From a virus, in the IMG/VR virus record IMGVR_UViG_3300045988_174371, positions 128,001 to 192,000 of that record: a stretch of DNA of 64,000 nucleotides. One strand, 5' to 3'. The position numbers and the translations under genes are program-made. A model generated the notes under the pieces. The model had not been told where the DNA came from and did not search any database. It saw only the letters and a list, made by a program, of their open reading frames with translations. Positions 1,744-19,968 of the stretch are shown piece after piece. Within the stretch, counting starts at the first letter, position 1. Every line of letters starts with the position of its first letter.

Positions 1744-1762
1744 GTAGCATTCCTTGGCTACA
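1744..1762 (-). promoter_or_regulatory. 5' leader stem-loop (short variant)
   Basis: TGTAGC-CAAGGAAT-GCTACA starts about 7 nt after the -10 element. Confidence 0.45.
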
Positions 1763-1767
1763 TTTAT

Positions 1768-1797
1768 AGTATGCCACAGATTCTATCATGCGTGCAA
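1768..1797 (-). promoter_or_regulatory. cassette-family promoter
   Basis: TTGCAC, 18 nt, (TGTGG)CATACT. Confidence 0.55.
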
Positions 1798-1874
1798 GTC
1801 GATACGGCATGGGGTGCATCACATGCTTAATTAGGGGAACATCTTTCATGGCATTTGCCTATGAGGTCACATAA

Positions 1875-1926
1875 AAGCCACCTATCCCGCCGTGCTGTAT
1901 TTGCGCAGGTAGGGTAGGTGGCTTTC
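1875..1926 (-). terminator. hairpin terminator of 1995..2426
   Basis: aagccacctatccc pairs with gggtaggtggctt. Confidence 0.45.
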
Positions 1927-1994
1927 TTGATGCAGGCGCAGGCGGCAACGTAGGCAACCGTCAAAGGCACTACAGATTGCCACCATGCCACATG

Positions 1995-2426
1995 CTACTT
2001 CTTAGGAATGCGCACGCCATTCTTAATCTCATAGAGGGTGAACTGAGCCTCTTTGTCTGCCGGGTCACTAAGGGTTAGTTTCCAGTCGGTTGCGTAGCCA
2101 TCTCGCCATGAAGCGCCTTCGAATAGGTGGCGGTTGCCGTCACCGGGGTTGAGGAACTTAATTCTGCCGACCTTCTCACCCGTCTCAGAGTAGATGGTTA
2201 GACCGCATTCAGTAGTCCATTCCTCGCTGGTGTATTCATAGCCGGAGTATGGGGCAGTATGTTCAGTTTTCTTAATCCAGTCGTCACTGTAGACCTTGGC
2301 GTACTTGCCTTTGCGGTTGATGCGCCCTACAGCTTGAGCGAGGGTCTTCTCACCCTTATGCAGGGGCACTTCGACCTTGAGGTCGAGCCCATCGTTACCG
2401 AATCTAATTGACAGGTTTTCCGTCAT
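1995..2426 (-). CDS. hypothetical protein (143 aa)
   Basis: Full ORF with ATG behind GGAAAGGTGAAGGA. Confidence 0.65.
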   Translation of the reverse strand: MTENLSIRFGNDGLDLKVEVPLHKGEKTLAQAVGRINRKGKYAKVYSDDWIKKTEHTAPYSGYEYTSEEWTTECGLTIYSETGEKVGRIKFLNPGDGNRHLFEGASWRDGYATDWKLTLSDPADKEAQFTLYEIKNGVRIPKK

Positions 2427-2568
2427 TATTCCTTCACCTTTCCTTTAAGGCGCGCTTAGGTTTCACGGGTTAAAAGTGCGCCTCGTCGCGCGCGTTTAAA
2501 ACAAATAGCCCTAAGGGGCTTTCCAGGGGCACAATCCCTCCAGAAGCCCCTTAGTGCTATTGTATAGC

Positions 2569-2862
2569 TTATTCAGCGTTGATGATGAGCTTTCCAGCCT
2601 CCCAATCGACAGAGTGAACCATTTCGTCCACCTCAACGCCTTCAACGATACCATTACCGAGGCGGCGCATTACAGCGTCTTCATCGGCAGTATCGACATC
2701 AAGGTCTACAGTAACAGGTGCTACGTAGGTGTCGATAGATACATCCATGACGACCATTCCCTCTAGCGCGTAATAGATGGTGGAGATGACAACCTCAGTA
2801 CCTTCTTCGATAGCTTCGAGAATTTCAGTGTTAGGGTCGAAGGTGAGTTCTACGTGTGCCAT
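2569..2862 (-). CDS. small acidic protein (97 aa)
   Basis: Trimmed to the ATG at 2862 behind GAAAGG. The upstream part of the track ORF is the translated leader. Confidence 0.6.
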   Translation of the reverse strand: MAHVELTFDPNTEILEAIEEGTEVVISTIYYALEGMVVMDVSIDTYVAPVTVDLDVDTADEDAVMRRLGNGIVEGVEVDEMVHSVDWEAGKLIINAE

Positions 2863-2895
2863 GATGTGAACCTTTCGGTCGAGAGTGGGTATCTT

Positions 2896-2925
2896 TATAG
2901 CCTTCAGGGAGTTCCCCTCGCTACA
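2896..2925 (-). promoter_or_regulatory. 5' leader stem-loop
   Basis: Outer stem TGTAGC/GCTATA, inner stem AGGG/CCCT. Confidence 0.5.
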
Positions 2926-2930
2926 TTTCC

Positions 2931-2960
2931 AGTATGCCACAGATTAAGCCCACTACACAA
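2931..2960 (-). promoter_or_regulatory. cassette-family promoter
   Basis: TTGTGT, 18 nt, (TGTGG)CATACT. Confidence 0.55.
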
Positions 2961-3021
2961 CTCAGACTTGTGTTAAGTGAGTCACACAATAGAGCGCAAG
3001 TATAGCGCCCTAGCACAGGGC

Positions 3022-3390
3022 CTATTTCTCAACCTTCTTGAAAGATGCTCTAACCGCGTACATGAGAGCCACCATAAAGCAGGAAGCAATGGAGTTCAAG
3101 ACGAGTGAAGCAATTACTGCAATAACGATAGGGAACCCGCCGTTAATGCCAGCCCTAGTGCAAACGTCTGTGGTAAGACTGCCCAGGAAGCATAGCCAGA
3201 AAACATAGGTGAATAAGGTTATGATACTAGCCGCAGGTGCGTCATCATCATCTTCAAAGAACGCAATGAGGCAGTACAAGGCAAGCAGGATAGCGCCCGC
3301 AATAATGCCAGGGACGAAGAACAGCAGGAAGAGCGGAGCTTCGGCAAAGAACTTATACGGGTCGAGGGAATTGAAGAAATCAACAAGCAT
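3022..3390 (-). CDS. small polytopic membrane protein, paralogue 4 of 4 (122 aa)
   Basis: N-terminal motif DPYKFFAEAPLFLLFFVPG is shared with three upstream neighbours. About 4 hydrophobic helices. Confidence 0.65.
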   Translation of the reverse strand: MLVDFFNSLDPYKFFAEAPLFLLFFVPGIIAGAILLALYCLIAFFEDDDDAPAASIITLFTYVFWLCFLGSLTTDVCTRAGINGGFPIVIAVIASLVLNSIASCFMVALMYAVRASFKKVEK

Positions 3391-3432
3391 ATATGCTTCC
3401 TTTTACTAGTATTGAATCGGTGGCTTGCGTAG

Positions 3433-3843
3433 CTACTTACTCTCGCGGCTACCGCCTACCGCCTCTTGTACTTGGCTACTAGGGAACAGGAAGCCGCCTA
3501 CGCTAAACACTGCACGTGCCGCAATGAGTGCCGTAACCACATTGGAGATTGTGCCTACGGCAACCGCTAGAACCAGTGGGTATCCGTCCATGACACCTGC
3601 ACGCAAAAACACCTCAGTTAGAGTGCTTAGCATCCAAACGGTTCCACCAATGGTAGATAGAACGCCAAGCGCGAGTGTTAGCCCCTCAGCCGCCCCACTG
3701 CGACCAAGAACCACTCTAAGCAAAGCGTAGATGGCGGATAGGGTGATAATGTAGGTAATTCCAGGGGCAACGAATGACACCCACAGGGGCGCATCAATGA
3801 GGAACCTTACGGGGTCGAAGGCGTTAAACAAATCAATGAGCAA
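3433..3843 (-). CDS. small polytopic membrane protein, paralogue 3 (136 aa)
   Basis: TTG start behind GAAAGGA. Motif DAPLWVSFVAPG. Confidence 0.6.
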   Translation of the reverse strand: MLIDLFNAFDPVRFLIDAPLWVSFVAPGITYIITLSAIYALLRVVLGRSGAAEGLTLALGVLSTIGGTVWMLSTLTEVFLRAGVMDGYPLVLAVAVGTISNVVTALIAARAVFSVGGFLFPSSQVQEAVGGSRESK

Positions 3844-3864
3844 CGAGGTTTTTCCTTTCGGTAG

Positions 3865-4260
3865 TTAGTTATCCGTGGCGGCTTCTACCCTACGTAGAAG
3901 CTTTGGGATGTTGGTGAAGGTGATGGCGACTGTAAAGAATGTGAGAGGTAGGGCGGCAACATTGGTGACAATAGATAGTAGGTGCGGGACTACCCACGTT
4001 TCATCAATGAGCCCCTTAGATTGAAACACGGGAGGGAGGCTACAAAGTGTCGCAATGAGGGCGAAGAAAATAGCGATGCCTGCGAGCGCTTGCGCCCCGC
4101 TATCCTTGAAGTTATTGCTTTCGTTTGCGCCAGCAAATACGGCGCAAATAGCACAGAGCAGAATGCCTGCAACTACTCCAGGCGCGACAAACAACACCCA
4201 GAGAGGCGCGTCAGCGAATACATGCTGGAGCATATCGGCAATACTTGCGGTGAAGAGCAC
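3865..4260 (-). CDS. small polytopic membrane protein, paralogue 2 (131 aa)
   Basis: GTG start behind GAAAGGA. Motif DAPLWVLFVAPG. Confidence 0.6.
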   Translation of the reverse strand: MLFTASIADMLQHVFADAPLWVLFVAPGVVAGILLCAICAVFAGANESNNFKDSGAQALAGIAIFFALIATLCSLPPVFQSKGLIDETWVVPHLLSIVTNVAALPLTFFTVAITFTNIPKLLRRVEAATDN

Positions 4261-4286
4261 GTTAGGGGTTTCCTTTCTGTGGGTGG

Positions 4287-4649
4287 CTACTTATCGCTAG
4301 TAGCATCTACTTTGTGTAGTAGCTGGATGATGTGAGGGGCGGTCATCTCAAGTAGGGCGAATAGGGGGAGTGAAAGAACTAGGCTTGCAACGAGTACGCC
4401 CAGACTCATGTTTAGAACTTCTGTCCCTTCGAATCCCTTTTTCTCAAACACGCTAGGGGCAATTATGAGAACTGCCGCGATGCCTGGGATAAAGGTAAGT
4501 AGGCAAGCCACCTCCTCATCCATGACATTAGAAAGCCTGTAGCCAATTGAGATTAGGGCGGCGAACATGAACCCAGGGGCGATGAATACCATCCATGTAG
4601 GTGCGGTAACTAGCACCTGCGGAACTGCAATTGTTGCGACCGTGAGCAT
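4287..4649 (-). CDS. small polytopic membrane protein, paralogue 1 (120 aa)
   Basis: ATG behind GGAAAGGA. Motif APTWMVFIAPG. Confidence 0.6.
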   Translation of the reverse strand: MLTVATIAVPQVLVTAPTWMVFIAPGFMFAALISIGYRLSNVMDEEVACLLTFIPGIAAVLIIAPSVFEKKGFEGTEVLNMSLGVLVASLVLSLPLFALLEMTAPHIIQLLHKVDATSDK

Positions 4650-4739
4650 TGGGGAATCCTTTCCTAGAGAGCGGTTATAGTGAAGTGCATACTGGACGCA
4701 CTCTTTTTAGGGGCTTACCCCCTTATTGTTGCAATCCCC

Positions 4740-4768
4740 ATTATACCCCATAATCCGTTTTGGCAATT
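4740..4768 (-). promoter_or_regulatory. possible promoter of the 4-gene membrane operon
   Basis: Minus-strand TATAAT at 4740-4745 preceded by TATGGGG. The -35 element is poor. Confidence 0.35.
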
Positions 4769-4829
4769 GGTGGCAAGCTCGAAGACTTCCTCTTACATTG
4801 CCTTGTGGCACACCTCACGCAAATCCAAC

Positions 4830-4859
4830 TTGCATACAGTTTTAAATCTGTGATAGACT
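4830..4859 (+). promoter_or_regulatory. cassette-family promoter (only plus-strand copy)
   Basis: TTGCAT (4830-4835), 18 nt, (TGTGA)TAGACT (4854-4859). Confidence 0.6.
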
Positions 4860-4927
4860 ATAGATATAAGGCGAGGGAATGAAGCCCTAGCTACTAAACC
4901 ACAAACCAACCGAAAGGTCTATCAATT

Positions 4928-5308
4928 ATGGGTCACATGCCTAACGGAATTGCTCTCGCTTTCCCCGATGACGAGCCCATTGTTTCCGAGTTCACCCCTG
5001 ATGCAATTGAGGGTGTTACCTTCCAGGAAATCCTCAAGGAAATTCAGGAAACCACCACCGAGTTAGCTATCGACACCCGAAGCGGCAGTGATGAACTGTT
5101 CCTCATGCCGCGAACCAGCGACGGTCCCGTCGAGATGGGCGGCAAGTTCATCATCGGCAAGGTGACCCTCCCCAATGAGGATAATAACTCTATTCTCCAG
5201 TTCGCCGCCAACTACATGGTGTTTGATTTCTCCCCTGAGATTGAGGAAAACCCCGACATTCCCGGTAGTATCCTGTTCACCGTAGACGCTCTCCGGTGGG
5301 GAATGTAA
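4928..5308 (+). CDS. small acidic protein (126 aa)
   Basis: ATG behind CCGAAAGG. It has its own promoter and a shared bidirectional terminator. Confidence 0.65.
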   Translation: MGHMPNGIALAFPDDEPIVSEFTPDAIEGVTFQEILKEIQETTTELAIDTRSGSDELFLMPRTSDGPVEMGGKFIIGKVTLPNEDNNSILQFAANYMVFDFSPEIEENPDIPGSILFTVDALRWGM

Positions 5309-5319
5309 CTGTAGACCAT

Positions 5320-5365
5320 AAGGAGCCGCCCCTCACATTGCACTTAATGTGAGGGGCGGCTCCTT
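5320..5365. terminator. bidirectional hairpin terminator
   Basis: 20-bp stem: aaggagccgcccctcacatt pairs with aatgtgaggggcggctcctt. It lies between convergent genes. Confidence 0.7.
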
Positions 5366-5492
5366 GTTGCGCCGTATTATGCTAAATGGTGTGCCATACC
5401 TACACCTCGCCTGTGAGAGACACGGCGGGGTGTTTACTCTATCCAGGATAGCGTATTCCACTTATACGCAGAGATGGCTCTCGGTCAGAAGC

Positions 5493-6629
5493 CTACAGGT
5501 ACGGGAAAGGTTTGTACGTCTCATATTGCGGGTCGTCAGGCATTACCTGGAAATGGGTGGGCGCACAATCGCACCTATCGCGTTCTTCCTGCCTCCAGAT
5601 GGCTACTTCGCTCATGTGGTAGCGAACCTCAGATTCGCCGCCACATACAATGTAGCCGCCATCGTCAATTCTGGGGTATTCATCGAAGTGGTAGACATCC
5701 GTCATGTATTCATCTTTCGGGTTGCCAATCACCACTACAGTAAAGCCCAGCGTTCTGCCGGGCTCTGCGCAAATCTTGGGTAGAACCTCAAGCTTATTGA
5801 TGGTGTGGACGCACTGGTTTCCGCCCAGCAGGGGGTAGTAAGCCCCAAAGCTGAGCTTGCCGCCATCAACCATGATGACACCCTCTTTGCCATTAGGGAG
5901 CTTGACGTTGATACCACTAGCGCCTGCGGCTGAGTCTACCACCACGTCCACGTCGGCTATGGGTGCGCCTGCAAGGGCTAGGCGCACACGCTCACCCTTA
6001 TGGAAGCCTATAAGCAGGTTATTGTTGGTGGGGTTGGTGAGCTTGAGGAAGTTGCGCTGTTCGCGAGGTTGCTTTGAATGGTATGCCTTTGAAACTTGGT
6101 TCATCATTAGGTGCTGAAGGCTTCCAATGATTCCAGTAAGCGCGGCAGTCGCCTTTTCAGAACCAAGGTTACAGACTTCGCTAGTTTGAGCTCTGTTGAT
6201 GATGTGGTTGAGCTGTTCCTTGGATAGTTCGTGTGGCTCGCGGGCGGCGATACGGCAGAGTGCTGAGATGTCCGTTGCCGTAAAGTCGATACCTTCAAGA
6301 TGCTTCATGATGTCGTTGAGGGCACAAGCAACGCTTTTGTCGTGCTCATACGTCGCTTGGGTGGCGCTGAACACTGTCTCCCACTTAAAAGCAGGCACAC
6401 CATCGCCTAGCGCGTCGCCAGACATTGCTACCGGGTATTCCCAGACTGAGCCGCCCAGCTCCCAGGTAATTCGCTTACCATCTACGGGCTTCGTGGTGAC
6501 ATACCTCATGTCGCCGTCAATGTCTCGATACTCTACGTCGTATTCTTCGTAGGTTGGTGAGTTTTTACGGCGGGCAACGAACATGGCGCAGGGGCTTGTG
6601 AGCAGGTGGTTTTCGTTGAGTGCAAGCAT
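5493..6629 (-). CDS. hypothetical protein (378 aa)
   Basis: Long ORF with ATG behind AGAAAGAAAC. Promoter at 6682-6711. Confidence 0.65.
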   Translation of the reverse strand: MLALNENHLLTSPCAMFVARRKNSPTYEEYDVEYRDIDGDMRYVTTKPVDGKRITWELGGSVWEYPVAMSGDALGDGVPAFKWETVFSATQATYEHDKSVACALNDIMKHLEGIDFTATDISALCRIAAREPHELSKEQLNHIINRAQTSEVCNLGSEKATAALTGIIGSLQHLMMNQVSKAYHSKQPREQRNFLKLTNPTNNNLLIGFHKGERVRLALAGAPIADVDVVVDSAAGASGINVKLPNGKEGVIMVDGGKLSFGAYYPLLGGNQCVHTINKLEVLPKICAEPGRTLGFTVVVIGNPKDEYMTDVYHFDEYPRIDDGGYIVCGGESEVRYHMSEVAIWRQEERDRCDCAPTHFQVMPDDPQYETYKPFPYL

Positions 6630-6681
6630 TGATTACGGGTTTCTTTCTGTAGCTGTTTGCGTAACGTAACGGTCGCATTCA

Positions 6682-6711
6682 AGTGTAGCACAGATTAGTG
6701 GTAGTGCAGTG
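6682..6711 (-). promoter_or_regulatory. cassette-family promoter (weak -35)
   Basis: AATCTGTGC-TACACT. Confidence 0.45.
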
Positions 6712-6747
6712 TATTCGCCTAGGATTTTCAGGGATAGGGTATAGATA

Positions 6748-6794
6748 AAGCCCCGCCGGGTAGTGGGAGATGTATCCCAGCCCGGCGGGGCTTT
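6748..6794 (-). terminator. hairpin terminator
   Basis: aaagccccgccggg pairs with cccggcggggcttt. Confidence 0.6.
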
Positions 6795-6818
6795 ATTCCT
6801 CAAATGACAACAAAATCA

Positions 6819-6847
6819 ATTATACCCATAACCGCGCCAGATTGCAA
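6819..6847 (-). promoter_or_regulatory. near-consensus promoter feeding directly into the 6748-6794 hairpin
   Basis: TTGCAA (6842-6847), 17 nt, TATAAT (6819-6824) on the minus strand. Confidence 0.45.
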
Positions 6848-6916
6848 CCCAGCTACCGGGTAGCTTGTTGCTGGTCTGGCTTCCTTTTCGTTCGTGCTGG
6901 GCTATTGGGTGTGTGG

Positions 6917-7864
6917 TTATTGGCGGTTGATGTGTAGCACCGGCTCTTCCCTGTCTGTCCAAATGAAGTACCTGGGTTCGTTGGTCATTGCTGGGTATTT
7001 CAGCTCTACAATGCCCCAGGCATTCGATTTCCTGTATTCGTCCTTGGATAGCCCGTGGAGCTTATGCATGTGGTGTTCTGCCGTGCCTCGTTTGGTGAAC
7101 TTTTCGCCTGCAACCATGTCCGCATACTCTAGTAGGGAGGTGTCGCCTTCAGGGATGGTTAGGATGAGCGGGACACATGGGTTCTGCTTGTTGATGTATG
7201 CTAGTCCTTCGCCGTTTATTGTCGCTGACTCTTCAGATGGGGTGATGGTGAGGTCGCCTATGAGGGTGGAGCCGCCGCCTACCTGAATGTCACCTGCGAT
7301 AGTTACGTTACCCTCCAGGACTGACAGTTCGCCTATTTGAGCGCCTGCGGCGACGTGGCAGGTGCCTGTGATGGTTGAGAAGCCGGAAATGATGGTGTCA
7401 CTGTTGCCGCCGCCAGTGACTCGCGCTGAGTCGGTTACCGCCGCCGATTCAATTAGCACGCGCCCGCCCTGTGAATCGTGGGTTAGCGGGTCGCCTACAC
7501 GCGCCATGCCGCTTACAGCAGAGCACCCGCTCACAATGGCGGTTTCATCCACGAAAGCACCATCACGCACCTGTGCATCATCGGTTACTTTGCCTAGTAC
7601 TACGGCATCGCCTTCAACCCAGCAGTCGCCGTCTTGGGATAGGCATTGTTCGCTTGAGATGTATCCGCCAAGCGCTCCTGGCTGGACGACGGGGAAGCGA
7701 AGCCCTCTGTAGATTGGGCGGAGTGCTTGGATGCGGTATACCGTGTACCCGCCTGGGTATGTGCGAGTATGCGCCGCATCGCGTAGGATGCGGTATTTCT
7801 TCTTCCCTGCCAGCATGTTTGCGGCAACGACTGGAACGGTGGTAATGGGGGTTGCAGAACTCAT
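6917..7864 (-). CDS. YdcK-like left-handed beta-helix repeat protein (315 aa)
   Basis: YRIQAL..PGALGGYISSEQCLSQDGDCWV resembles the E. coli YdcK N-terminal pattern (YQIIAL..GDLGGW..NLSQ.GNCWI). Hexapeptide-like repeats follow. Confidence 0.65.
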   Translation of the reverse strand: MSSATPITTVPVVAANMLAGKKKYRILRDAAHTRTYPGGYTVYRIQALRPIYRGLRFPVVQPGALGGYISSEQCLSQDGDCWVEGDAVVLGKVTDDAQVRDGAFVDETAIVSGCSAVSGMARVGDPLTHDSQGGRVLIESAAVTDSARVTGGGNSDTIISGFSTITGTCHVAAGAQIGELSVLEGNVTIAGDIQVGGGSTLIGDLTITPSEESATINGEGLAYINKQNPCVPLILTIPEGDTSLLEYADMVAGEKFTKRGTAEHHMHKLHGLSKDEYRKSNAWGIVELKYPAMTNEPRYFIWTDREEPVLHINRQ

Positions 7865-7936
7865 GCGGGGTTCCTTTCAAGAGTGTGAGCGGTACCCAGC
7901 AATGATGCGTGGGCGCTCTGATGCTCATATGACTCC

Positions 7937-8394: not shown

Positions 8395-8430
8395 GATTGA
8401 TAACCTTTCGGTTGATGGGAAACTGTGGCT

Positions 8431-8466: not shown

Positions 8467-8471
8467 TTTAT

Positions 8472-9611: not shown

Positions 9612-9638
9612 GAGCACAGCCCTTTCGGTTGGGTAAAG

Positions 9639-9785: not shown

Positions 9786-11054
9786 TTATGCGTCTTCTGC
9801 CTCGGTTGCAGGGGTGCTAACCTCAGTATCGCCGGGCTCTTCGTCAGCCTTAGCAGGCGTGGGAGGCGGGACAATGGCGGGAGTGTCTGCATTGTCAGCA
9901 GTGTCTACGATATGCTTATCCTCTTCCTTGGCGCGCTCCAACCGCTTCTTATCCCATATCGCCTCCTGCCTCATTGCCAGGTGGTCCATGAACTCTTCGT
10001 ACTCGTCCTTATCGGGGCGCTCTAGGTATTCGATGCCGGTTACAGGGGAGGTCTGCACGTTACGCGGGTAGCCTCCCTCCTTGTCGAAGGATGACGCATA
10101 CGCGCCGGGTCCAGCATCCCCAATTTCCAGCTTTACACCGTAGATGTCGGCAATTTCCTGAGCCGCCTCAAGGACGCGGGGGTAACCAATCTTCCAGTGA
10201 GGGAGCACTGAGCCGTACTCTTCGTAACCGAATGCCTCGGCTGAGTGTGCCCAGTCGTCGTTTGCTCGTAGAAGAAGGGTGGTGGGGAACCCCCACATGT
10301 TCATTGGCTCGTCAATGACTTCACCTGATAGGTCGGTGAAGCCGCGTTCACTCACTAGCACAACTCCGCCGGTAACGATGGAACCCTTACGTAGCTGTAC
10401 GTGCCCAGCAACGACAGCAGAACCACTCACGCGGCTAAAGCGGATGACCAATGCGCCATCTGAGACGCGGGCGCGACCAGAAACCCAGGAATGGTTATCT
10501 ATGGTGGTTTGGCGGCGGTCGAAGATGAGGTCTTTATCCACCCCCACGAAGTTACGACCAACAACCTGCGCGTAGTCGGTCACCATAGACTCGGTTACTT
10601 CTGCGCCGTCAATCACTTGTGCGAAGTCAGAGATGAGCGACCGACCGTTTACCTTGGATGGATACCCTACATGGGCGTGACCAGTTACCTGGCTATCATC
10701 TGACACATAGCCGGAGATAAGTGCGTCGTCTGCTACCCAGCATGACCCGCGATGGCTGAGGGTTATGCCGTGGCTAGGGTTGGTGGCGATGTAGCCGCCC
10801 AGGTCGCCAGGTTCAACCGGCGGTAGCCCAAAGGGGCGTTCAATGCGGCGTAGCGCGCGGATGCGCTGATAGGTGGTGTCGCCTATGGTGATGGTGTGCT
10901 TGTCGCCACTCAGCACCTCGTATTTACTGTTCTGCCAGTCGTGTATTGCTGAATTGAGTACAGTTTCGTTGCTGTACGTCTCGCGGATACCGGCGCGAGC
11001 GCGCAAAGCAAGTTCTTTGGCGTTGCGGGTGAGGTTGCTAATGTTGCTAGGCAT
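9786..11054 (-). CDS. YdcK-like beta-helix protein with C-terminal extension (422 aa)
   Basis: QRIRAL..PGDLGGYIA...GSCWV plus repeats, followed by about 170 aa more with an acidic P/T/E tail. Confidence 0.65.
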   Translation of the reverse strand: MPSNISNLTRNAKELALRARAGIRETYSNETVLNSAIHDWQNSKYEVLSGDKHTITIGDTTYQRIRALRRIERPFGLPPVEPGDLGGYIATNPSHGITLSHRGSCWVADDALISGYVSDDSQVTGHAHVGYPSKVNGRSLISDFAQVIDGAEVTESMVTDYAQVVGRNFVGVDKDLIFDRRQTTIDNHSWVSGRARVSDGALVIRFSRVSGSAVVAGHVQLRKGSIVTGGVVLVSERGFTDLSGEVIDEPMNMWGFPTTLLLRANDDWAHSAEAFGYEEYGSVLPHWKIGYPRVLEAAQEIADIYGVKLEIGDAGPGAYASSFDKEGGYPRNVQTSPVTGIEYLERPDKDEYEEFMDHLAMRQEAIWDKKRLERAKEEDKHIVDTADNADTPAIVPPPTPAKADEEPGDTEVSTPATEAEDA

Positions 11055-11353: not shown

Positions 11354-11390
11354 GGAAGCCCCCTACAGAGGCTCTGTAGGGGGGGTTCCT
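11354..11390 (-). terminator. hairpin terminator of 11401..11724
   Basis: ggaagccccctacagag pairs with ctctgtagggggggttcc. Confidence 0.6.
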
Positions 11391-13232: not shown

Positions 13233-14312
13233 TTACAGCCCTGCTTCGTCGTAAATCGCCGCCAGTCGAGAGCGCAACTCACGAACCGCAGTGACCTCAC
13301 CCCTAATGCCCACGATAACGCCATCCACTAGTTGCAACATCTTATTGCGTCGGAAAGCATAGTTATCGCGCTCATAGATAGGCACGTCACCCACACCCTT
13401 TAGTAGCGACTTGAGGCAATCAGAGCCGTCACGGATAGAGCCAGTGAACACATCCCTAAAGATGCCCTCTAGTGAATTGCCTAGGCGGTCGTAGTACCGA
13501 GTTAGCTTGAGGTAGTCGTCAATATCTTTAAGGGAGCCGATAGGTAGAAGCTTTACGGAGGCGGCAAGGATACGGAAAGTATCGTCGCCGGACACTAGCA
13601 ACAAGTGGTTAGGGTTATTAGAGGTGGAGGAAATTACGCCACGGCGTACATCATTCCCACCAATACGGAAGTTCGCCCTAGCTTTCCCATCCACAGTTCC
13701 TAGAACCTTCATGTAACCATCCTGATTACCTTCATAGTAACCAGCGGAGGTCATTTCATAAATACCGCCGCCACGGAGCAATATACCCGGTAGTGCAACA
13801 CAGTCGCTAGTGAACTCAGGGGTAGACACGACAATCTGCTGTCGTGCCTGGTAGTCAGCGTGACACTCTTCAAACGCTTTCAAACATTCGATGCGCCTAC
13901 CCTCAAACCATTCACTTTCATGCAAGAGGATACGCTCTGCTTCATTCAGGAAGTCAAAGGCGGCTTTGGCAGAGTCACGACTCACCACAGACACCCCTAG
14001 CGGGCGCATCCGCGAATCCCCATACCTGGAGTTATTCACGAACGATAGCATCCGACTAAGCAAGGCGCGCATCTCACCAATAATGAGGTTTAGGCGGCTT
14101 TCACGGTCGAACCACTCCTGAGCATCACCCCTGGACACGTTCGTCGCAACCTTCTTAACCTCATCACCCTCATGCAGGGCGCAGGTCACCATCTGGTCGG
14201 TAGCGCGTACCCCCTCAATGGTCACATTGCCGAACTTGTCGGGATTAGAGATGGAATGTACATAAATCAAGCCGCCGCTTACATGCACAACGTCACGCGG
14301 GGAAATATTCAT
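13233..14312 (-). CDS. mosaic-family protein (359 aa)
   Basis: Paralogue of 21011..22090. Shared blocks: WFDRESRLN, EWFEGRRIECLKAFEE, GGIYEM, VKLLPIGSLKDIDDYL. Confidence 0.7.
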   Translation of the reverse strand: MNISPRDVVHVSGGLIYVHSISNPDKFGNVTIEGVRATDQMVTCALHEGDEVKKVATNVSRGDAQEWFDRESRLNLIIGEMRALLSRMLSFVNNSRYGDSRMRPLGVSVVSRDSAKAAFDFLNEAERILLHESEWFEGRRIECLKAFEECHADYQARQQIVVSTPEFTSDCVALPGILLRGGGIYEMTSAGYYEGNQDGYMKVLGTVDGKARANFRIGGNDVRRGVISSTSNNPNHLLLVSGDDTFRILAASVKLLPIGSLKDIDDYLKLTRYYDRLGNSLEGIFRDVFTGSIRDGSDCLKSLLKGVGDVPIYERDNYAFRRNKMLQLVDGVIVGIRGEVTAVRELRSRLAAIYDEAGL

Positions 14313-14388
14313 GAGTAAGACCTTTCAGTAGATTTGAAGCTTGAATGAGTGGCTGGCGTGCCATGTACCCCACTCATGTTATATACAT

Positions 14389-14418
14389 AGTGTATCACAT
14401 ATTATGGATTTACGGCTT
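14389..14418 (-). promoter_or_regulatory. cassette-family promoter (weak -35)
   Basis: AATATGTGA-TACACT. Confidence 0.45.
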
Positions 14419-14868
14419 TCACTGGAATGAGCATTAGGGATTAGCCATAAAGCGTATGAGGAGCCCATAACCGCATCAGTACGGTTATGGACTCCTCATG
14501 TAGCATGGTAATCATGCCGAGCCATAGCCCCTATATGAGAGGGCTAGAAGCCACCGCTAGATGTAAAAACTGAATACTTCCCATTATGCCACTATTCCGT
14601 GTCGTCCGCATCATCCCACACAGGGAGCCAGTCAGGAATGAGCATAAGAACGGCAGACAGCAATATTTGGCGAGTGCAGGTATAGAGGTAGCCCCTTACG
14701 AGATGAGGTTAATACTTTATCTCGCAAGGGGCTACCACCTGAAAGAAGAATATGGAAAGCATTATACCTGCACCCTGGCAGGAAAGCAACTCACCCCTAA
14801 TTCGTGGCGGCAATGCTTGATGGTTGCCGCCTGCGTGTCGCCGTGAGGGTATCAAATGTGAGCCGCAT

Positions 14869-14919
14869 ACAGTAGAGCCGCCTGCATATCCTTAGTGATA
14901 CGCGGGCGGCTCTACTGTA
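14869..14919 (-). terminator. hairpin terminator of 14931..15326
   Basis: acagtagagccgcc pairs with ggcggctctactgt. Confidence 0.6.
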
Positions 14920-14930
14920 CTAGATGTTAG

Positions 14931-15326
14931 CTAGATTCCAAGCTGGTTGGGTACAGCATACTCGATAGAAACGTCAATGAAGTTGATGCCCTGGAAGATG
15001 GATACCTCTTCACCCAGCAGACCCAACGCACCCATGAGCTGTAGGATAAGCTTGTCGGTGTAGTTGATGCGGCTCAGGTCTACGGTTGCGGTAATCTCGG
15101 CAACGGCGTTACCTTCTTCGTCTTCAGCCTCAACGGAGCGCTGTTCTTCATCGAAGAAGTAGAGGGTTGCCTCCGTGTCACCTTCACCGCAGGCAATGGA
15201 GATGGTGCGTGCCTTCTCGCCAAGGGTTTCTGCAAGGCTGTCGGCAGTAAAACCGTCGATAGGGTCGATGTGTGCGGTGAAGCTCTGGGTTTCGCCCTGG
15301 AAGTTGAGGATGGATTCGGGGTACAT
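14931..15326 (-). CDS. small acidic protein (131 aa)
   Basis: Trimmed to the ATG at 15326 behind CCGAAAGG. Confidence 0.65.
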   Translation of the reverse strand: MYPESILNFQGETQSFTAHIDPIDGFTADSLAETLGEKARTISIACGEGDTEATLYFFDEEQRSVEAEDEEGNAVAEITATVDLSRINYTDKLILQLMGALGLLGEEVSIFQGINFIDVSIEYAVPNQLGI

Positions 15327-15358
15327 GCTAGACAGCCTTTCGGTAGCGGTAGATGGTG

Positions 15359-15398
15359 TGTAGCTTTTTCTTTGGAAGCTTTTCTCTTCCTTGCTACA
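15359..15398 (-). promoter_or_regulatory. 5' leader stem-loop
   Basis: Outer stem TGTAGC/GCTACA, inner stem GGAAG/CTTCC. Confidence 0.5.
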
Positions 15399-15403
15399 TT
15401 TAT

Positions 15404-15433
15404 AGTCTAACACATATTTCGGAACGTGTGCAA
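15404..15433 (-). promoter_or_regulatory. cassette-family promoter
   Basis: TTGCAC, 18 nt, (TGTGT)TAGACT. Confidence 0.6.
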
Positions 15434-15533
15434 GTCGAATATGTGTGAAGTGAAACACAGGGCTATTGCGCCTATCTACAGCAGGCGGCAAAGCATCCAT
15501 AGGGCTAGGTAACCCGCCAGGCAAAATGAGCAT

Positions 15534-15584
15534 GGGTAGAGCCCCTTACGCCTAAGGGGTACTTAGGCGTAAGGGGCTCTACCC
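15534..15584 (-). terminator. hairpin terminator of 15603..15995
   Basis: 23-bp stem: gggtagagccccttacgcctaag pairs with cttaggcgtaaggggctctaccc. Confidence 0.65.
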
Positions 15585-15602
15585 ATATGGGGTTTGTTGC
15601 TA

Positions 15603-15995
15603 CTATCCGTAGCGCTCAACACTTTCCTTGATGCCCTCAAGAGTAGACTCAAGGTTTCCAGCCAGGCTCTCAGCCTCACTATTCACGAGGCTAACCTGGA
15701 AGCCATACTCACTATCCTCCAGGGTGCGAAACTGGGTGAGGTTCTTCAGGGCTCGAATACGGGCTTCCATTGCGTCAGATGCGATAACGCGGAGGCGGTG
15801 AATGCTCTTTGCCTTGCTTTGTGCGCGGGCGAAAACTACCGGCGCTACAGATGCGTTTGCAAAGAATAGTTCGGTCTGTGCGTCAAGGTCGCATTCCTTG
15901 GTCAGCTTAGAGGCGGCTTCCAGCGCGTCACTTTCAATCTGAGCCAGGTTCTTCAAGATGTTCTTTGCGCGTTCGTTGATTTCAGCAGTAGACAT
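15603..15995 (-). CDS. helical protein, paralogue of 19501..19902 (130 aa)
   Basis: DLDAQTELFFANASVAPVVFARAQSKAKSIHRLRVIASDAMEARIRAL aligns with the 19501 protein. Confidence 0.65.
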   Translation of the reverse strand: MSTAEINERAKNILKNLAQIESDALEAASKLTKECDLDAQTELFFANASVAPVVFARAQSKAKSIHRLRVIASDAMEARIRALKNLTQFRTLEDSEYGFQVSLVNSEAESLAGNLESTLEGIKESVERYG

Positions 15996-16027
15996 TAGAT
16001 GCTCCTTGCATGTTTAGAGAAACTGTC

Positions 16028-16063
16028 TGTAGCTTTTCTCTGGAAGCTCTCTTCCTCGCTACA
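16028..16063 (-). promoter_or_regulatory. 5' leader stem-loop
   Basis: Sequence identical to the 18422-18457 copy. Confidence 0.5.
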
Positions 16064-16068
16064 CTTAC

Positions 16069-16098
16069 AGTCTAACACATATTTCAGACAGTACGCAA
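16069..16098 (-). promoter_or_regulatory. cassette-family promoter
   Basis: TTGCGT, 18 nt, (TGTGT)TAGACT. Confidence 0.6.
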
Positions 16099-16130
16099 GC
16101 CGAATATGTGTTAAGTGGGACACAAAGACG

Positions 16131-16170
16131 AAAGCCCCTTAGCTGATGTGTTTCAGCTAAGGGGCTTCCC
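16131..16170 (-). terminator. hairpin terminator of 16257..17525
   Basis: gaaagccccttagctga pairs with tcagctaaggggcttcc. Confidence 0.6.
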
Positions 16171-16256
16171 TGTAAGTATACGCGGGCGCTCGCTAAGTGT
16201 CACCCATACACTCATACTGTTAGCAGTGAGGTACTTACCGAGCTACCTGCAACAAC

Positions 16257-17525
16257 CTATTGCTCATTGAGTTCTGCCACCGCTTCGAGAGCTTCACGCA
16301 TCTCATTTAGGTACTTATTGCCTTCGTATCGGGCGTTTCCAACCCTGATGCCCACAATCCGCATTACGGTGTCCTTGAGGTACTGTAAACGCAGGACGCT
16401 ACGGCTCTTCTTAGCGTCGAGCGTCATAGAGCTGAGTTCTTCCAACAGTTCAAGCCAGCGGGGAGTCTTTCGATTTGCAGGCTTTGCCTTCTCTACCTCA
16501 ATTTCATCCTCAAGAAGGCTAATAAACCTGTTGAGGGGTTCCTCCTGTGCTTCGTAGAGCGCATGAATCTCACTCACCGCGTCAGGGTTTCGAGTAGGCA
16601 GAACAGCAAAGCTATTCACGTACACAGGCTCCACAGAGCCGCCCGCCTTCACTAGATGTAGAGCCAGGTCATACTTCACCTCTTCGTCATCGTACCAGTC
16701 TTCAACGTGGACAGCCTTAACGCGAAGGGTACCCACTTCATTGGCAGTAAGGTTCTGCACCTGAAGCTCAGAGTCAGAGCCGCCGGTCACCTGCAAGTAC
16801 TGCACGCCCGAAGCAGTCTCGACAGTCACAATGTCTCCAACGAAGCAACCAATGACAGAGCCGCCGCCCAGCGCGGCACTCCTTAGCTGAATAAACTTTG
16901 CCTCGCTGAGGTCTACTCCTTCAGCCGCGCCGTCCGCGTACTTCTGAACAGCTTCACGCTCATCACGGCTCAACAGACAAATAGCACTAGCCACCGACTC
17001 ACTATGCATATCGAGTGAAGTAACCCAGTGGTGATGTTCACCAGTAATGTAAAGATAGATGCGCTCAGCGTCGCCTAGGCGAATGACATGCGGGTTATTT
17101 CGACCTTCATTTAGGGGTGCAACATCGCACCAATCGCTGAAAGCAGACACACCCTTAGGTAGAGCCAAAGACTTACGAGCACGCACAAGCGCCGCGAAAT
17201 AATCCTTCGTCTCATACACAGCGCCATCCGGGAAAGCACGCACAATCTCAACAACCGCCTCAGGCTTGAAAGACTCACCATCCCTCTCACACGGCGACAG
17301 CTCACCCCAGGTAACGACCTGGCTAAGCGTGAAGCGCGGCGCGCCCGCTTCACCCTCGCAGGCAGTCAGTACACAGCGGGCGCGTGAAAAACCGGCAGGC
17401 TTCAAGATTGCGATACCAGCGCCATCATCCATAGAAAGTACCGTGTACAGACCATACTCACCGCCTTCAACCTCGGTAGTGATGATGACATCGCGAACCT
17501 TGAGGTCAGCAATAGTGATAGTCAT
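16257..17525 (-). CDS. hypothetical protein (422 aa)
   Basis: Long ORF trimmed to the ATG at 17525. The SD is weak. The C-terminus looks like a coiled coil. Confidence 0.6.
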   Translation of the reverse strand: MTITIADLKVRDVIITTEVEGGEYGLYTVLSMDDGAGIAILKPAGFSRARCVLTACEGEAGAPRFTLSQVVTWGELSPCERDGESFKPEAVVEIVRAFPDGAVYETKDYFAALVRARKSLALPKGVSAFSDWCDVAPLNEGRNNPHVIRLGDAERIYLYITGEHHHWVTSLDMHSESVASAICLLSRDEREAVQKYADGAAEGVDLSEAKFIQLRSAALGGGSVIGCFVGDIVTVETASGVQYLQVTGGSDSELQVQNLTANEVGTLRVKAVHVEDWYDDEEVKYDLALHLVKAGGSVEPVYVNSFAVLPTRNPDAVSEIHALYEAQEEPLNRFISLLEDEIEVEKAKPANRKTPRWLELLEELSSMTLDAKKSRSVLRLQYLKDTVMRIVGIRVGNARYEGNKYLNEMREALEAVAELNEQ

Positions 17526-17574
17526 AATGGGGGTACACCCTTTTCTGGAAATCATAGTAGTAAATAATAGGTCT

Positions 17575-17604
17575 AGTGTACCACATTATCGGCGGCAGGC
17601 AGGG
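17575..17604 (-). promoter_or_regulatory. cassette-family promoter (weak -35)
   Basis: AATGTGG-TACACT. Confidence 0.4.
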
Positions 17605-17983
17605 GCACCCCTAGCCAGCAAGCGCGAACAAGGCGACCTAAAGAGTGATAATGAGCAATGGCAGGTGGTAAGCATACAGTAACAGCTCACCGCCTATCAG
17701 CGCTCGCATACCCCCCCCAGCAGTGAGTAGTAGGTGTGCATCATGCAGTGAAAGTCCCATTGGGCGGCGGCTCAGCCTGGCAATAGCCGCGCTACAGCTA
17801 GACTCTAAGGCGACAGTAGGAAGCTACCACCGCATCCCTGGCAGGCAGTCAGCACCCCTAGCAAGGGGTGGCATGTGACAATCATCCAGCAGGCGGCAGA
17901 GTCGCTAGGGCAGGGCGTAGATAGAGACACACCCGCTCACCTCTTCCACCGCTGGCAGTGAAGTGTTTTTCAGGGCGCAAAGA

Positions 17984-18006
17984 AGCCCCTGCTACATGCA
18001 GGGGCT
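17984..18006 (-). terminator. short hairpin terminator of 18041..18388
   Basis: agcccctgc pairs with gcaggggct. Confidence 0.45.
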
Positions 18007-18040
18007 TTCATCTAGGGGTACTTGTTATGCGGTAACCATG

Positions 18041-18388
18041 TTAGAGGTTCTTAGTCAGCTCCTTACCAAGCTTGATGGTGTCGATAATCAGCTTTTCGTT
18101 ATCGAATACATACTTGAGTTGCCAGGGCGAAATCTCGAAGCCGTACTCAGTATGGGGGCGCAAAGTGTCGGAAAGAAGCGCTTGCACCTGGTAACCCTTA
18201 TAGGTGTTGTATGCCTTGAGTCGGATTGCCAGCGGCTTGTTCGGGTCGTTGATGTACTCAGCCTTAGCGGGCATGATGGGTTCTTTCACCTTTGCCTGGT
18301 AAGCGTCGGACTCCATGAAGGAGTTAATCTCCTTGAGGTACTGCTGAAGCTTTGCAACTGCTTCGTCGTAGTTCTTGTTGAAGTCCAT
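18041..18388 (-). CDS. small helical protein (115 aa)
   Basis: Trimmed to the ATG at 18388 behind CCGAAAGG. Confidence 0.65.
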   Translation of the reverse strand: MDFNKNYDEAVAKLQQYLKEINSFMESDAYQAKVKEPIMPAKAEYINDPNKPLAIRLKAYNTYKGYQVQALLSDTLRPHTEYGFEISPWQLKYVFDNEKLIIDTIKLGKELTKNL

Positions 18389-18421
18389 GATGGCAACCTT
18401 TCGGTCTAGGGAGAAACGGTC

Positions 18422-18457
18422 TGTAGCTTTTCTCTGGAAGCTCTCTTCCTCGCTACA
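18422..18457 (-). promoter_or_regulatory. 5' leader stem-loop
   Basis: Outer stem TGTAGC/GCTACA, inner GGAAG-AGAG-CTTCC. Confidence 0.5.
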
Positions 18458-18462
18458 TTTAT

Positions 18463-18492
18463 AGTCTAACACATATTTCAGACCGTCTGCAA
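18463..18492 (-). promoter_or_regulatory. cassette-family promoter
   Basis: TTGCAG, 18 nt, (TGTGT)TAGACT. Confidence 0.6.
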
Positions 18493-18776
18493 ATCGAATA
18501 TGGGTGAAGTACATCACATCCCATCAATGCACCCCACCCACACCTCATGACAGTAAAGGGCAAGAGCGCTACCCTAGCGCTCGCAAACCTATACAGCAAG
18601 GTAAGCAACCAGTAGTCACTGTAAGCCAGCGGCTCGCTACGGCAACTAACCTGCGGATAGCAAGCGCCCGCCATGCCGCCCAATAACCATTCCTGCACAC
18701 ATAAGCAAAGCGGGCGGGCAATCAGTGGAACACTCCATCTGATTACCCGCCCGGCTATTACCAAGCGCGTTACATG

Positions 18777-19163
18777 CTACATCCCAAAGTCGAAAGGCAT
18801 ACTGAGGGCAAACTCATACGTAGCCGTACCATTAAATACCTCAGGGGCACCAATAGGCTTATCACCCATTGCTCGAACAATTGCATCACTGATGCACAGA
18901 GCCACCTGACGCACAGCAGGGGAGTACAGAACGAACTCCACAGAAGGCTTAACGTCACCCTCCACCTGCACACCCTCGCCATCATCAACAGCGGGTGACT
19001 CTTCAATGGAGAACTTTACAACCCAGCTACCATACTCATTCGGAGCTTCAACCTGTTCTACCTGAACATCCTTAACGCTGAACTTGCTACCCTTCCAGAA
19101 GTTGCTAGACTCAGCGGGAAGGTCAGTAACAGACTTGAACTTGTGCCAAGAGGTGAGAAACAT
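18777..19163 (-). CDS. small acidic protein (128 aa)
   Basis: Trimmed to the ATG at 19163 behind AAGGAG. Confidence 0.6.
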   Translation of the reverse strand: MFLTSWHKFKSVTDLPAESSNFWKGSKFSVKDVQVEQVEAPNEYGSWVVKFSIEESPAVDDGEGVQVEGDVKPSVEFVLYSPAVRQVALCISDAIVRAMGDKPIGAPEVFNGTATYEFALSMPFDFGM

Positions 19164-19219
19164 GAAAAGCTCCTTAGGTGAACAAGCGGGCGATAGTACC
19201 CAAAAACGATTACACGTAT

Positions 19220-19249
19220 AGTCTAGCACATATTTCAGACCGTATGCAA
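19220..19249 (-). promoter_or_regulatory. cassette-family promoter
   Basis: TTGCAT, 18 nt, (TGTGC)TAGACT. Confidence 0.6.
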
Positions 19250-19500
19250 GTCGAATAGGGGTGAGGTGGGACACACTCGTATTCTATCCGCACATGGCGC
19301 TCGCATATAGCCGCCGCACACACGCGCTCACATGTCCCTCACCAGCAACCGGAAGCACCTCAATAAGCCACCCCTTAGCTCACGCGATAGTAGCCGCCGC
19401 GCAGGTAAGCCACCCTACACTCCAGCCATTGCGCATATTGCACAGCTGGACATAAAAGAGAGGGGGTAGAGGCTTGTGACACCCCTACCCCTCAATGGGA

Positions 19501-19902
19501 TTACTTGCCGAACTGTTCGTTATCGGCTTCAATGTCCTTACGACACTCTTCCAGTCGTCGCGTCAGACTATCGCTCTTATCGACAGTGTGCAAGGCGAAA
19601 GCGAACTCCTTTGCGCTAACGTCAGCGGCACGCATCTCATTAAGCAGATGCAGAGCATACACACGAGCACTCATCGCCTCAGAAGCAAGAACATGCAGGT
19701 ATGCAACGCGGTCAGCCTTACGGTCATTGCGGGCAAACACAATCGGCTCTACCGGCTCATACGACTCAGCAAGAAACAGCTTAACCTGAGAGTCGAGGTC
19801 AGCCTCAGCCGCCAGCTCATCAGCAAGGGCGCGAGCCTCACGCTCAACAGTGGCGAAAGTATTCAGAACTTCCTCTGCACGTTCCATAAGTTCACGAAGC
19901 AT
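19501..19902 (-). CDS. helical protein, paralogue of 15603..15995 (133 aa)
   Basis: Trimmed to the ATG at 19902 behind CCGAAAGG. Confidence 0.65.
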   Translation of the reverse strand: MLRELMERAEEVLNTFATVEREARALADELAAEADLDSQVKLFLAESYEPVEPIVFARNDRKADRVAYLHVLASEAMSARVYALHLLNEMRAADVSAKEFAFALHTVDKSDSLTRRLEECRKDIEADNEQFGK

Positions 19903-19935
19903 TGCAGGCAACCTTTCGGTAGTAAGTAAATGGTC

Positions 19936-19968
19936 TGTAGCTCTTCCAGAGGCTCCCCTCTCGCTACA
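19936..19968 (-). promoter_or_regulatory. 5' leader stem-loop (covarying inner stem)
   Basis: Outer stem TGTAGC/GCTACA. Inner stem AGAGG/CCTCT replaces GGAAG/CTTCC. Confidence 0.5.

Follow-up and report, generated by a model that had tools for sequence, protein, structure and literature searches.

Hairpins at the 5' end of an mRNA are known as stabilizers from the 5' untranslated region (UTR) of Escherichia coli ompA, from the ermC and aprE leaders of Bacillus subtilis, and from SP82 and cryIIIA STAB-SD. The promoter-early stem-loop (PeSL) cassettes of T4-type phages combine a promoter, a stem-loop and a Shine-Dalgarno (SD) sequence in hyperplastic regions, and are demonstrated terminators and sites of recombination (Arbiol et al. 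2010, PMC2839356; Comeau et al. 2014, PMC4122927). In Cluster K mycobacteriophages, the SAS/ESAS elements (Pope et al. 2011, PMC3203893) place a conserved module containing a ribosome-binding site (RBS) before many non-structural genes; no function has yet been assigned to ESAS (PMC3203893, PMC12699233). The present analysis concerns a leader hairpin that recurs in a 64,000-nt stretch of DNA (hereafter, the window), positions 128,001 to 192,000 of IMG/VR virus record IMGVR_UViG_3300045988_174371. The element to which the window belongs is uncultivated, ~290-360 kb in size, and either a huge phage or plasmid-like.

In organization, the PeSL cassettes are the closest described counterpart. In both systems a strong sigma-70-like promoter, a G-rich/C-rich stem-loop and an SD/start are repeated before small orphan open reading frames (ORFans) in a plastic region, and the motifs form the boundaries of gene-content differences among close relatives. 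The PeSL stem-loop, a terminator, sits inside the promoter or ahead of it (over the -35/-10 boxes, between them, or directly 5' of +1), whereas the stem-loop described here lies downstream of the -10 box from the predicted +1 on, has two tiers and no U-tract, and covaries in the manner of RNA, with G.U pairs tolerated. The sequences are unrelated, and the element studied here is not a T4-type phage. In layout, SAS/ESAS come closest: in a subset of cases an inverted repeat whose spacer is variable lies ahead of the RBS-containing module (here ACCGAAAGG), and all are in gene orientation. The 13-bp SAS consensus GGGATAGGAGCCC gave no matches, with up to two mismatches allowed. The ESAS arms are 17-bp imperfect repeats with a 4-13-bp spacer and abut the SAS, whereas the arms here are 3-6 bp, stand 8-28 nt apart, enclose a second helix, and lie by the promoter, ~20 nt upstream of the RBS.

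The leader hairpin and the conservation of its pairing

The initial annotation had reported eight copies of a TGTAGC...GCTACA or GCTATA stem enclosing a variable inner helix, and all of them are present. A window scan for TGTAGC-N(5-35)-GCTAYA gave 14 strand-matches at 8 sites, 6 of which have perfect palindromic ends; the mean in dinucleotide-preserving shuffles was 0.68, and none of 100 shuffles reached 14. The sense strand of all eight copies is the minus strand, and each copy sits between an extended -10 promoter and an SD sequence with ATG. The two-tier hairpin was both the minimum free energy (MFE) and the centroid structure in 8/8 window copies (ViennaRNA), with fold energies from -5.9 to -11.4 kcal/mol and z scores, relative to dinucleotide shuffles, from -2.0 to -3.2. 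Folding also bore out the inner helices as annotated: GGAAG/CTTCC in four copies, AGAGG/CCTCT, GGGG/CUCC with one G.U pair, and (A)GGG/CCC(U). As annotated too, the copy at 1743 consists of the outer stem alone, and GCTATA, with its G.U pair, occurs in two copies (2896 and 8431). In the window, 8 to 28 nt separate the TGTAGC arm from its GCTACA partner. Leaders with the TGTAGC/GCTAYA outer stem are referred to below as type A, and TATAAGGC...GCC leaders as type B. The eight type-A copies and their cassettes are as follows.

1743..1762, minus: outer stem only (UGUAGC, 8-nt loop, GCUACA); -5.9 kcal/mol, z -2.07; -35 1797-1792, -10 CATACT 1773-1768, predicted +1 ~1761, RBS ACCGAAAGG 1731-1723, ATG 1713-1711; 123-aa ORFan
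2896..2925, minus: two-tier stem-loop, outer UGUAGC/GCUAUA (one G.U), inner GGGG/CUCC-type, (A)GGG/CCC(U); -11.4 kcal/mol, z -2.98; -35 2960-2955, -10 CATACT 2936-2931, predicted +1 ~2924, RBS 2879-2871, ATG 2862-2860; 97 aa
8431..8466, minus: two-tier stem-loop, outer G.U (GCUAUA), inner GGAAG/CUUCC, 7-nt loop; -10.6 kcal/mol, z -2.93; -35 TTGCAT 8501-8496, -10 TAGACT 8477-8472, predicted +1 ~8465, RBS 8412-8404, ATG 8394-8392; 108 aa
11758..11792, minus: two-tier stem-loop, inner GGGG/CUCC (one G.U); -8.4 kcal/mol, z -2.25; -35 TTGTAT 11827-11822, -10 TAGACT 11803-11798, predicted +1 ~11791, RBS GTCGAAAGG, ATG 11724-11722; 107 aa
15359..15398, minus: two-tier stem-loop, inner GGAAG/CUUCC, 7-nt loop, 9-nt A-rich 3' linker; -9.0 kcal/mol, z -2.64; -35 15433-15428, -10 15409-15404, predicted +1 ~15397, RBS 15344-15336, ATG 15326-15324; 131 aa
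16028..16063, minus: two-tier stem-loop, inner GGAAG/CTTCC; -10.5 kcal/mol, z -3.20; -35 16098-16093, -10 16074-16069, predicted +1 ~16062, SD AAGGAG, ATG 15995-15993; 130 aa
18422..18457, minus: two-tier stem-loop (ViennaRNA fold), inner GGAAG/CUUCC, loop AGAG; -35 18492-18487, -10 18468-18463, predicted +1 ~18456, RBS 18405-18397, ATG 18388-18386; 115 aa
19936..19968, minus: two-tier stem-loop, inner AGAGG/CCUCU, loop GGAG; -11.3 kcal/mol, z -2.00; -35-like TTATAT 20003-19998, -10 19979-19974, predicted +1 ~19967, RBS 19920-19912, ATG 19902-19900; 133 aa

Related loci were fetched with the 422-aa protein encoded at 9786-11054 and an alignment of its relatives. This gave 34 loci (2 from IMG/VR and 32 from metagenomes; 43-96% identity; contigs up to 358 kb). 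The window, the 10 kb past its position 1 (L014) and these loci together contain 134 distinct cassettes of promoter, leader, SD and start, of which 33 are type A, 41 type B and 60 other, with a strong bias to the gene strand.

In type A, the hairpin stands at a fixed distance from the -10 box. GTAGC lies exactly 6 nt past the -10 hexamer in 33/33 distinct type-A cassettes, despite hexamers as different as TAGACT, TACACT, CATACT, CATAAT and TAAACT and a -35/-10 spacer of 17 or 18 nt. The usual distance from -10 to the start site puts +1 at the G of GTAGC, and the hairpin would therefore open at the first transcribed base. The annotated placement of the stem-loop inside the transcript, at its expected start, accordingly agrees with all 33 type-A cassettes, the start being predicted from promoter geometry. 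With +1 predicted in the same way, the first helix begins 0-9 nt from it in 113/126 distinct leaders and 0-4 nt from it in 90 of the 113 leaders with an early hairpin, the distances peaking at 0 nt for type A and at 3-4 nt for type B.

The leaders fold more stably than expected. The first 46 nt of 128 distinct leaders had a mean z of -1.60, compared with -0.31 for control coding segments from the same genes (Mann-Whitney p 1e-14), and z fell below -2 in 37% of leaders and 9% of controls. An early hairpin (>=5 bp, <=-5 kcal/mol, start within 10 nt) was found in 84% and 53%, respectively.

Covariation is thin within the window, because there are only eight copies and four of them share one inner helix. 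The claim that pairing is kept while sequence changes holds once relatives are included. An alignment by MAFFT left the 3' arm of the inner helix out of register, and covariance models, to which the covariation alignments were fitted, were therefore used. The type-A model (R1), seeded with five type-A sequences, found 53 matches, 40 of them distinct and all on the gene strand. In the alignment of these 40 sequences, 99.2% of cells are standard pairs. AU-to-GC switches occur at two inner pairs (in 4 and 7 sequences), and one outer pair switched once; 12 cells are changed on both sides, compared with 2.4 in shuffles. When partners were slid as a control, pairing fell to 28-47% of cells. The type-B model (R2) gave 47 matches, 43 distinct, with 89.2% of cells paired and double changes at four pairs. 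For both models, the covariation score was equalled in 0 of 500 shuffles. Across leader classes, 63 distinct apical and 53 distinct basal helices occupy one position. Rfam 15 gave no matches at gathering thresholds over the whole window, and the weak matches (E<=1) overlap none of the leaders.

The constraint on pairing is strand-specific, as would be expected of RNA. The non-Watson-Crick cells in the type-A alignment comprise 16 G.U/U.G, 1 A.C and 2 other; the G.U pairs are spread over several gene contexts, and the opposite strand would show them as A.C. Sense leaders fold at -9.93 kcal/mol and their reverse complements at -9.07 (Wilcoxon p 0.001). All of the covariance-model matches agree with gene orientation, including that of the one inverted gene. 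The comparison of sequences thus shows that the base pairs of the hairpin are kept by selection on the sense-strand RNA. The excess of G.U over A.C, the stability of the sense fold, the co-inversion with the gene and the variable arm distance favour the sense transcript over a duplex-DNA operator or a template-strand DNA hairpin.

An operator palindrome for a dimeric repressor or activator over the transcription start, like the conserved inverted repeats of phiC31, is accordingly very improbable, even though TGTAGC/GCTACA is a perfect 6-bp inverted repeat found at +1, a classic operator position, at many promoters. The half-sites stand at 8 to 28 bp rather than in a fixed geometry, the interior is itself a covarying hairpin, and other leader classes that have no palindrome still have a hairpin. 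Recognition of duplex DNA, moreover, predicts no asymmetry of the kind seen between G.U and A.C.

The cassette, its other leaders and genome plasticity

Each of the eight copies lies in a cassette of ~150 nt with the order -35 TTGCAT, 18 nt ending in TGTGn, -10 TAGACT or CATACT, 5-6 nt, stem-loop, a G-poor spacer of ~20 nt, ACCGAAAGG, 8-10 nt and ATG. The promoter consensus, TTGCAT-18-TGTGnTAGACT, is of the sigma-70/sigma-A-type with an extended -10; a simple promoter scan overlooked these promoters because each hexamer fits just 4/6. The spacer between hairpin and SD has a median length of 20 nt and contains 9% G, and the SD lies outside the hairpin, 8-10 nt before the start codon. Ten copies of the RBS module ACCGAAAGG were found in the window, compared with 0.4 expected, at 651-659, 1723-1731, 2871-2879, 3854-3862, 4909-4917 (plus strand), 8404-8412, 9621-9629, 15336-15344, 18397-18405 and 19912-19920. 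The copies at 3854 and 9621 have no upstream promoter or hairpin. ACC-GAAA-GGU within the module is able to form a 3-bp GNRA mini-hairpin that encloses the SD, and the mean unpaired probability of the SD is just 0.56.

Sequence upstream of the promoter is also shared by some copies. A conserved block, ATGTGAC.CAC.TCACACATATTCGACTTGCAT, lies over and 5' of the -35 box (minus strand; 15428-15470, 16093-16135 and 18487-18530), an 8-bp inverted repeat, CACATATT...AATATGTG, flanks the -35 in some copies, and relatives have TTCACATGATT 5' of TTGCAT. The block around -35 is possibly a UP-like or activator site.

In the window, the extended -10 core TGTGnYAnRnT has 17 minus-strand and 5 plus-strand occurrences, nearly all of them at 0.7-27 kb and before small open reading frames (ORFs); six further cores lie in L014. 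About ten more promoters of this class in the window have different leaders (718-, 4849+, 6692-, 13055-, 14399-, 17585-, 19230-, 20773-, 26917- and 52209-). Most of these leaders start with a hairpin too, either of type B (718-, 4849+) or unrelated (14399-, 20773-, 26917-), and a few have none. In the cassette at 4849, hairpin and gene are inverted as one. The hairpins are listed below.

675..697, minus: type-B-like stem-loop GCC-G-CCGG-loop-CCGG-AAA-GGC, from the promoter-class scan; -35 737-732, -10 TACGAT 713-708, predicted +1 ~701, RBS 659-651, ATG 641-639; 159 aa
4870..4892, plus: type-B stem-loop GGC-G-AGGG-loop-CCCU-A-GCU, matched by the type-B model at 4860-4896; -35 TTGCAT 4830-4835, -10 TAGACT 4854-4859, predicted +1 ~4866, RBS 4909-4917, ATG 4928; the sole plus-strand cassette
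14342..14376, minus: unrelated hairpin AUGAGUGG.../...CCACUCAU, ~6 nt past predicted +1; -10 TACACT 14394-14389, ATG 14312
20736..20748, minus: unrelated hairpin, CGGGG-AUG-UUCCCCG region; -35 20792-20787, -10 TATAAT 20768-20763, ATG 20693
26875..26893, minus: hairpin GUUGAG-7 nt-CUCAAC in a long C/A-rich leader, read from the sequence; extended -10 core TGTGGTACAAT 26917-26907

A search of PHROGs with ten cassette-driven proteins gave no family matches. The cassettes apparently drive dozens of small ORFan genes, each its own transcription unit. Strong GC-rich hairpins, many without a U-tract, follow most of the small ORFs just before the next promoter, so that each ORF looks like a separate terminator-promoter-leader unit; similar hairpins occur in intergenic regions of L014. 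Terminators without a tail are typical of some Gram-positive and actinobacterial systems. Three such terminator-like hairpins are:

11359-11383, minus: GC-rich terminator-like hairpin
16130-16169, minus: GC-rich terminator-like hairpin
19463-19491, minus: GC-rich terminator-like hairpin

When the first 22 kb of the window were compared with close relatives by BLAST, blocks of synteny were found to end at cassettes (window 18460, 16025/15459 and 1793/741). The block shared with loci L019 and L020 ends at 18460, within the 18422 cassette, and beyond this breakpoint L019 has 2.7 kb with extra cassette and ORF units (L019 1036-3755). Unit 16024-15460 of the window, comprising the 16028 cassette and its ORF, is absent from L018 and L019, where the flanking cassettes are fused, and L020 lacks window 1793-741.

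These breakpoints raise the alternative that the cassette is a PeSL-like mobile unit, kept and homogenized as the homology by which recombination shuffles ORFan modules; the stem-loop would then act as DNA, or as a terminator or attenuator of read-through that comes from the gene upstream, and the RNA fold would be incidental. Whole units of cassette and ORF have been gained or lost where synteny with L018, L019, L020 and L032 breaks; leaders 16028 and 18422 are identical over 36 nt; and the driven proteins tested are all ORFans, all of which recalls the promoter, stem-loop and SD of PeSLs. Homology, however, needs no pairing, yet the pairing survives double changes and G.U, but not A.C. The 3' arm is not followed by a U-tract on the sense strand, a promoter/terminator scan marked one copy only, and on its antisense side, and several promoters already have a separate, stronger terminator-like hairpin upstream of them. 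As a complete account this alternative is therefore improbable. Shuffling of cassettes and a role in RNA are compatible, and the former probably takes place as well. It is a probable contributor to the conserved sequence of the cassettes, but leaves the strand-specific upkeep of pairing unexplained.

Possible roles of the hairpin

The initial annotation had put forward three candidate roles, namely an mRNA stabilizer, a site for a common regulator and a processing signal, and a function among these is plausible. The reading that we prefer, with a probability of roughly 0.45, is that the hairpin serves as a 5'-terminal stabilizer and insulator of a portable promoter cassette. Lying at the predicted +1 or no more than ~4 nt from it, the hairpin would protect the mono- or triphosphate end against 5'-end-dependent decay, by RppH with RNase E/G or by RNase J, according to the host. 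It would in addition hold the purine-rich sequence that is transcribed first in a local fold; spacer and SD would then remain open whichever gene comes next and the cassette can be moved between genes. In proposed mechanism, the closest counterparts are the 5' stabilizers, in which a hairpin at, or a few nt from, the 5' end is followed by an open RBS; here the hairpin lies by the predicted start. Those stabilizers require pairing and leave sequence free, as do the highly paired type-A and type-B leaders and the unrelated helices found at the same position. STAB-SD likewise carries purine-rich sequence resembling an SD close to the 5' end. Here such purines are paired, not free, and the hairpin is repeated on dozens of genes as a portable cassette instead of belonging to a single gene. 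Two other functions were considered: RNase III-type processing was judged unlikely, as there are only 11 interrupted base pairs, and an intrinsic terminator was rejected, as the hairpin has no U-tract on the sense strand.

Several observations weigh against a stabilizer and insulator. The 5'-terminal placement rests on canonical spacing between -10 and +1, and 13 of the 126 leaders of this promoter class have no early hairpin (e.g. L016 11996). Type-B leaders would have 3-4 unpaired 5' nt, which is near the limit for protection by 5' hairpins, and the hairpins are only moderately stable, at -6 to -11 kcal/mol. The covariation statistics ignore kinship among the sequences; these are related, some being orthologous or homogenized by recombination, and the counts are therefore not independent events. 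Finally, the outer stem keeps its sequence and not its pairing alone, with one double change in its 6 pairs, and the unpaired parts are consistently A/G-rich; recognition by a factor would therefore fit as well.

Such recognition is the basis of a second proposal, that the hairpin is a handle for a common RNA-binding regulator or nuclease of all cassette genes, encoded by the element or the host. The factor could repress or activate translation, shut off transcripts at a set time by endoribonuclease cleavage, or be loaded onto RNA polymerase for antitermination as in lambda N-boxB or HK022 put. One architecture on dozens of otherwise unrelated genes is consistent with this, as are the near-invariance of the TGTAGC/GCTACA outer stem among 40 distinct sequences and the A/G-rich loops, bulges and linkers (a GA bulge; AGAG, GAAAG and AAAGAAA loops; an A-rich 3' linker). 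With 4-5 bp and A-rich loops, the inner hairpins bear a superficial likeness to boxB, and lambda nut (boxA-boxB) and HK022 put are likewise small promoter-proximal RNA hairpins with A-rich loops in early transcripts of mobile elements. However, boxA (CGCTCTTA) occurs in none of the leaders, and every unit has its own promoter, so that read-through is not obviously needed. The loops vary in length (3-11 nt) and in sequence, unlike the conserved GNRA-like pentaloop of boxB, and whole leader classes have unrelated helices, which would be unusual for one sequence-specific binder. Rfam matched none of the leaders, relaxed thresholds included, no candidate binding protein was identified, and the conserved 5' arm is explicable by promoter constraints on the initially transcribed sequence. 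On balance a common handle seems unlikely, though it is the alternative to which we give most weight. A distinctly unlikely variant is that the hairpin, perhaps together with ACCGAAAGG, is a self/non-self tag read by an element-encoded RNA-binding factor or nuclease. Such a factor would coordinately stabilize, translate or later shut off the whole set of ORFan transcripts, the ORFans probably being host-takeover or anti-defence genes, and what defines the regulon would be an RNA structure borne by a mobile promoter cassette.

The composition of the arms suggests one more alternative. Nearly all 5' arms are purine-rich and the 3' arms pyrimidine-rich, and the surroundings of the true SD are G-poor and open. 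From +1 to +20, the leaders may resemble the purine-rich sequence downstream of strong early promoters in phage T5. The 5' arm (GCGAGGAAGAG, GCAAGGGGG) might thus be set by promoter strength or escape, and the 3' arm might have evolved solely to sequester this pseudo-SD, which would otherwise trap ribosomes away from the true SD. The same polarity is also expected from a single ancestral helix, whose divergence via G.U intermediates would produce it; demands of the promoter on the first transcribed bases may strengthen it. Hairpins in the 'other' class, such as AUGAGUGG/CCACUCAU, are not SD-like, and there is a large overlap with the insulator part of the preferred reading. Masking as the sole function is quite improbable.

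The element and the meaning of the cassettes

Human oral metagenome contigs, up to 360,715 bp long, encode identical copies of proteins of the window, and the window is the reverse of about 181.2-245.2 kb of ERZ989713 k127_64826. The long ORFs of the window are all on the minus strand. The right half encodes DnaB, SSB, a DEAD-box helicase, a RusA-like protein and a 1158-aa protein with an M23 peptidase domain, as well as three adjoining ATPases:

32430-33989: T2SSE (TadA/VirB11-like) ATPase
34566-36311: CpaE/ParA-like AAA_31 ATPase
36336-37610: AAA_10 ATPase

This trio suggests a Tad-pilus or type IV secretion-like module, and the element may therefore be plasmid-like, though IMG/VR classes relatives of 319 kb and 56 kb as viral contigs. 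Identity with the Inocles, an idea that came from the ~360-kb oral contig, was ruled out by G+C content, which is ~52% here and 24-32% in Inocles (PMC12340149).

A near-identity DNA search with 20 kb gave no matches to known phages, and DnaB found only proteins of <30% identity in a phage collection and none in GTDB genomes. The GTDB scan with the 422-aa family gave distant matches only (~30-40% identity), mostly in Bartonella. This protein and its paralogue at 6917-7864 (both minus strand; 29% identity) belong to the phage families phrog_5070 and phrog_7964, of uncharacterized function; distant homologues of the pair, at ~30-40% identity, occur in multiple copies in many Bartonella genomes. 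Four exact 16-mer matches in IMG/VR (L001-L004) proved unrelated and were attributed to chance. No tRNA or tmRNA was found in the window, and the Neisseria DNA uptake sequence is absent. An actinobacterial or other Gram-positive host is no more than a conjecture, drawn from the SD GAAAGG, the TGTGn extended -10 and the terminators without a U-tail.

The plus strand at 23500-32200 has an extreme excess of G+T (GC skew reaching +0.71, with an AT skew of -0.88, at 24-26 kb), and relatives have the same G/T-rich stretch (L017 ~6600, L029 ~3340, L044 ~3070 and L048 ~2370). The minus-strand ORFs of this region are rich in Thr, Asn, His, Pro and Gln; Pfam gave no matches to the ORFs of the region. 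A strand-specific C->T/A->G bias could account for the skew, as could a divergent transcription unit. Its ORFs include:

23967..25889, plus: long Gly/Val-rich ORF
30440..32143, plus: long Gly/Val-rich ORF
23761..24516, minus: ORF wholly of low complexity

What is new here is a 5' leader hairpin inside a mobile regulatory cassette of a novel giant element; each kind was known already. It is an RNA structure of diverse sequence, backed by covariation counts, that lies outside Rfam and occurs on dozens of genes, and its carriers are a widespread, uncharacterized family of ~300-kb human-associated elements. The covariance models of the motif offer a practical marker by which metagenomes can be searched for related elements and for the units that these express. 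The coincidence of cassettes with synteny breakpoints carries the idea of the PeSL mobile cassette past the T4-type phages. Should the hairpin be a handle for a regulator, it would define these elements' early regulon; should it be a stabilizer or insulator, it would be a natural case of the synthetic-biology design of promoter, insulating hairpin and RBS, and could be reused as a part.

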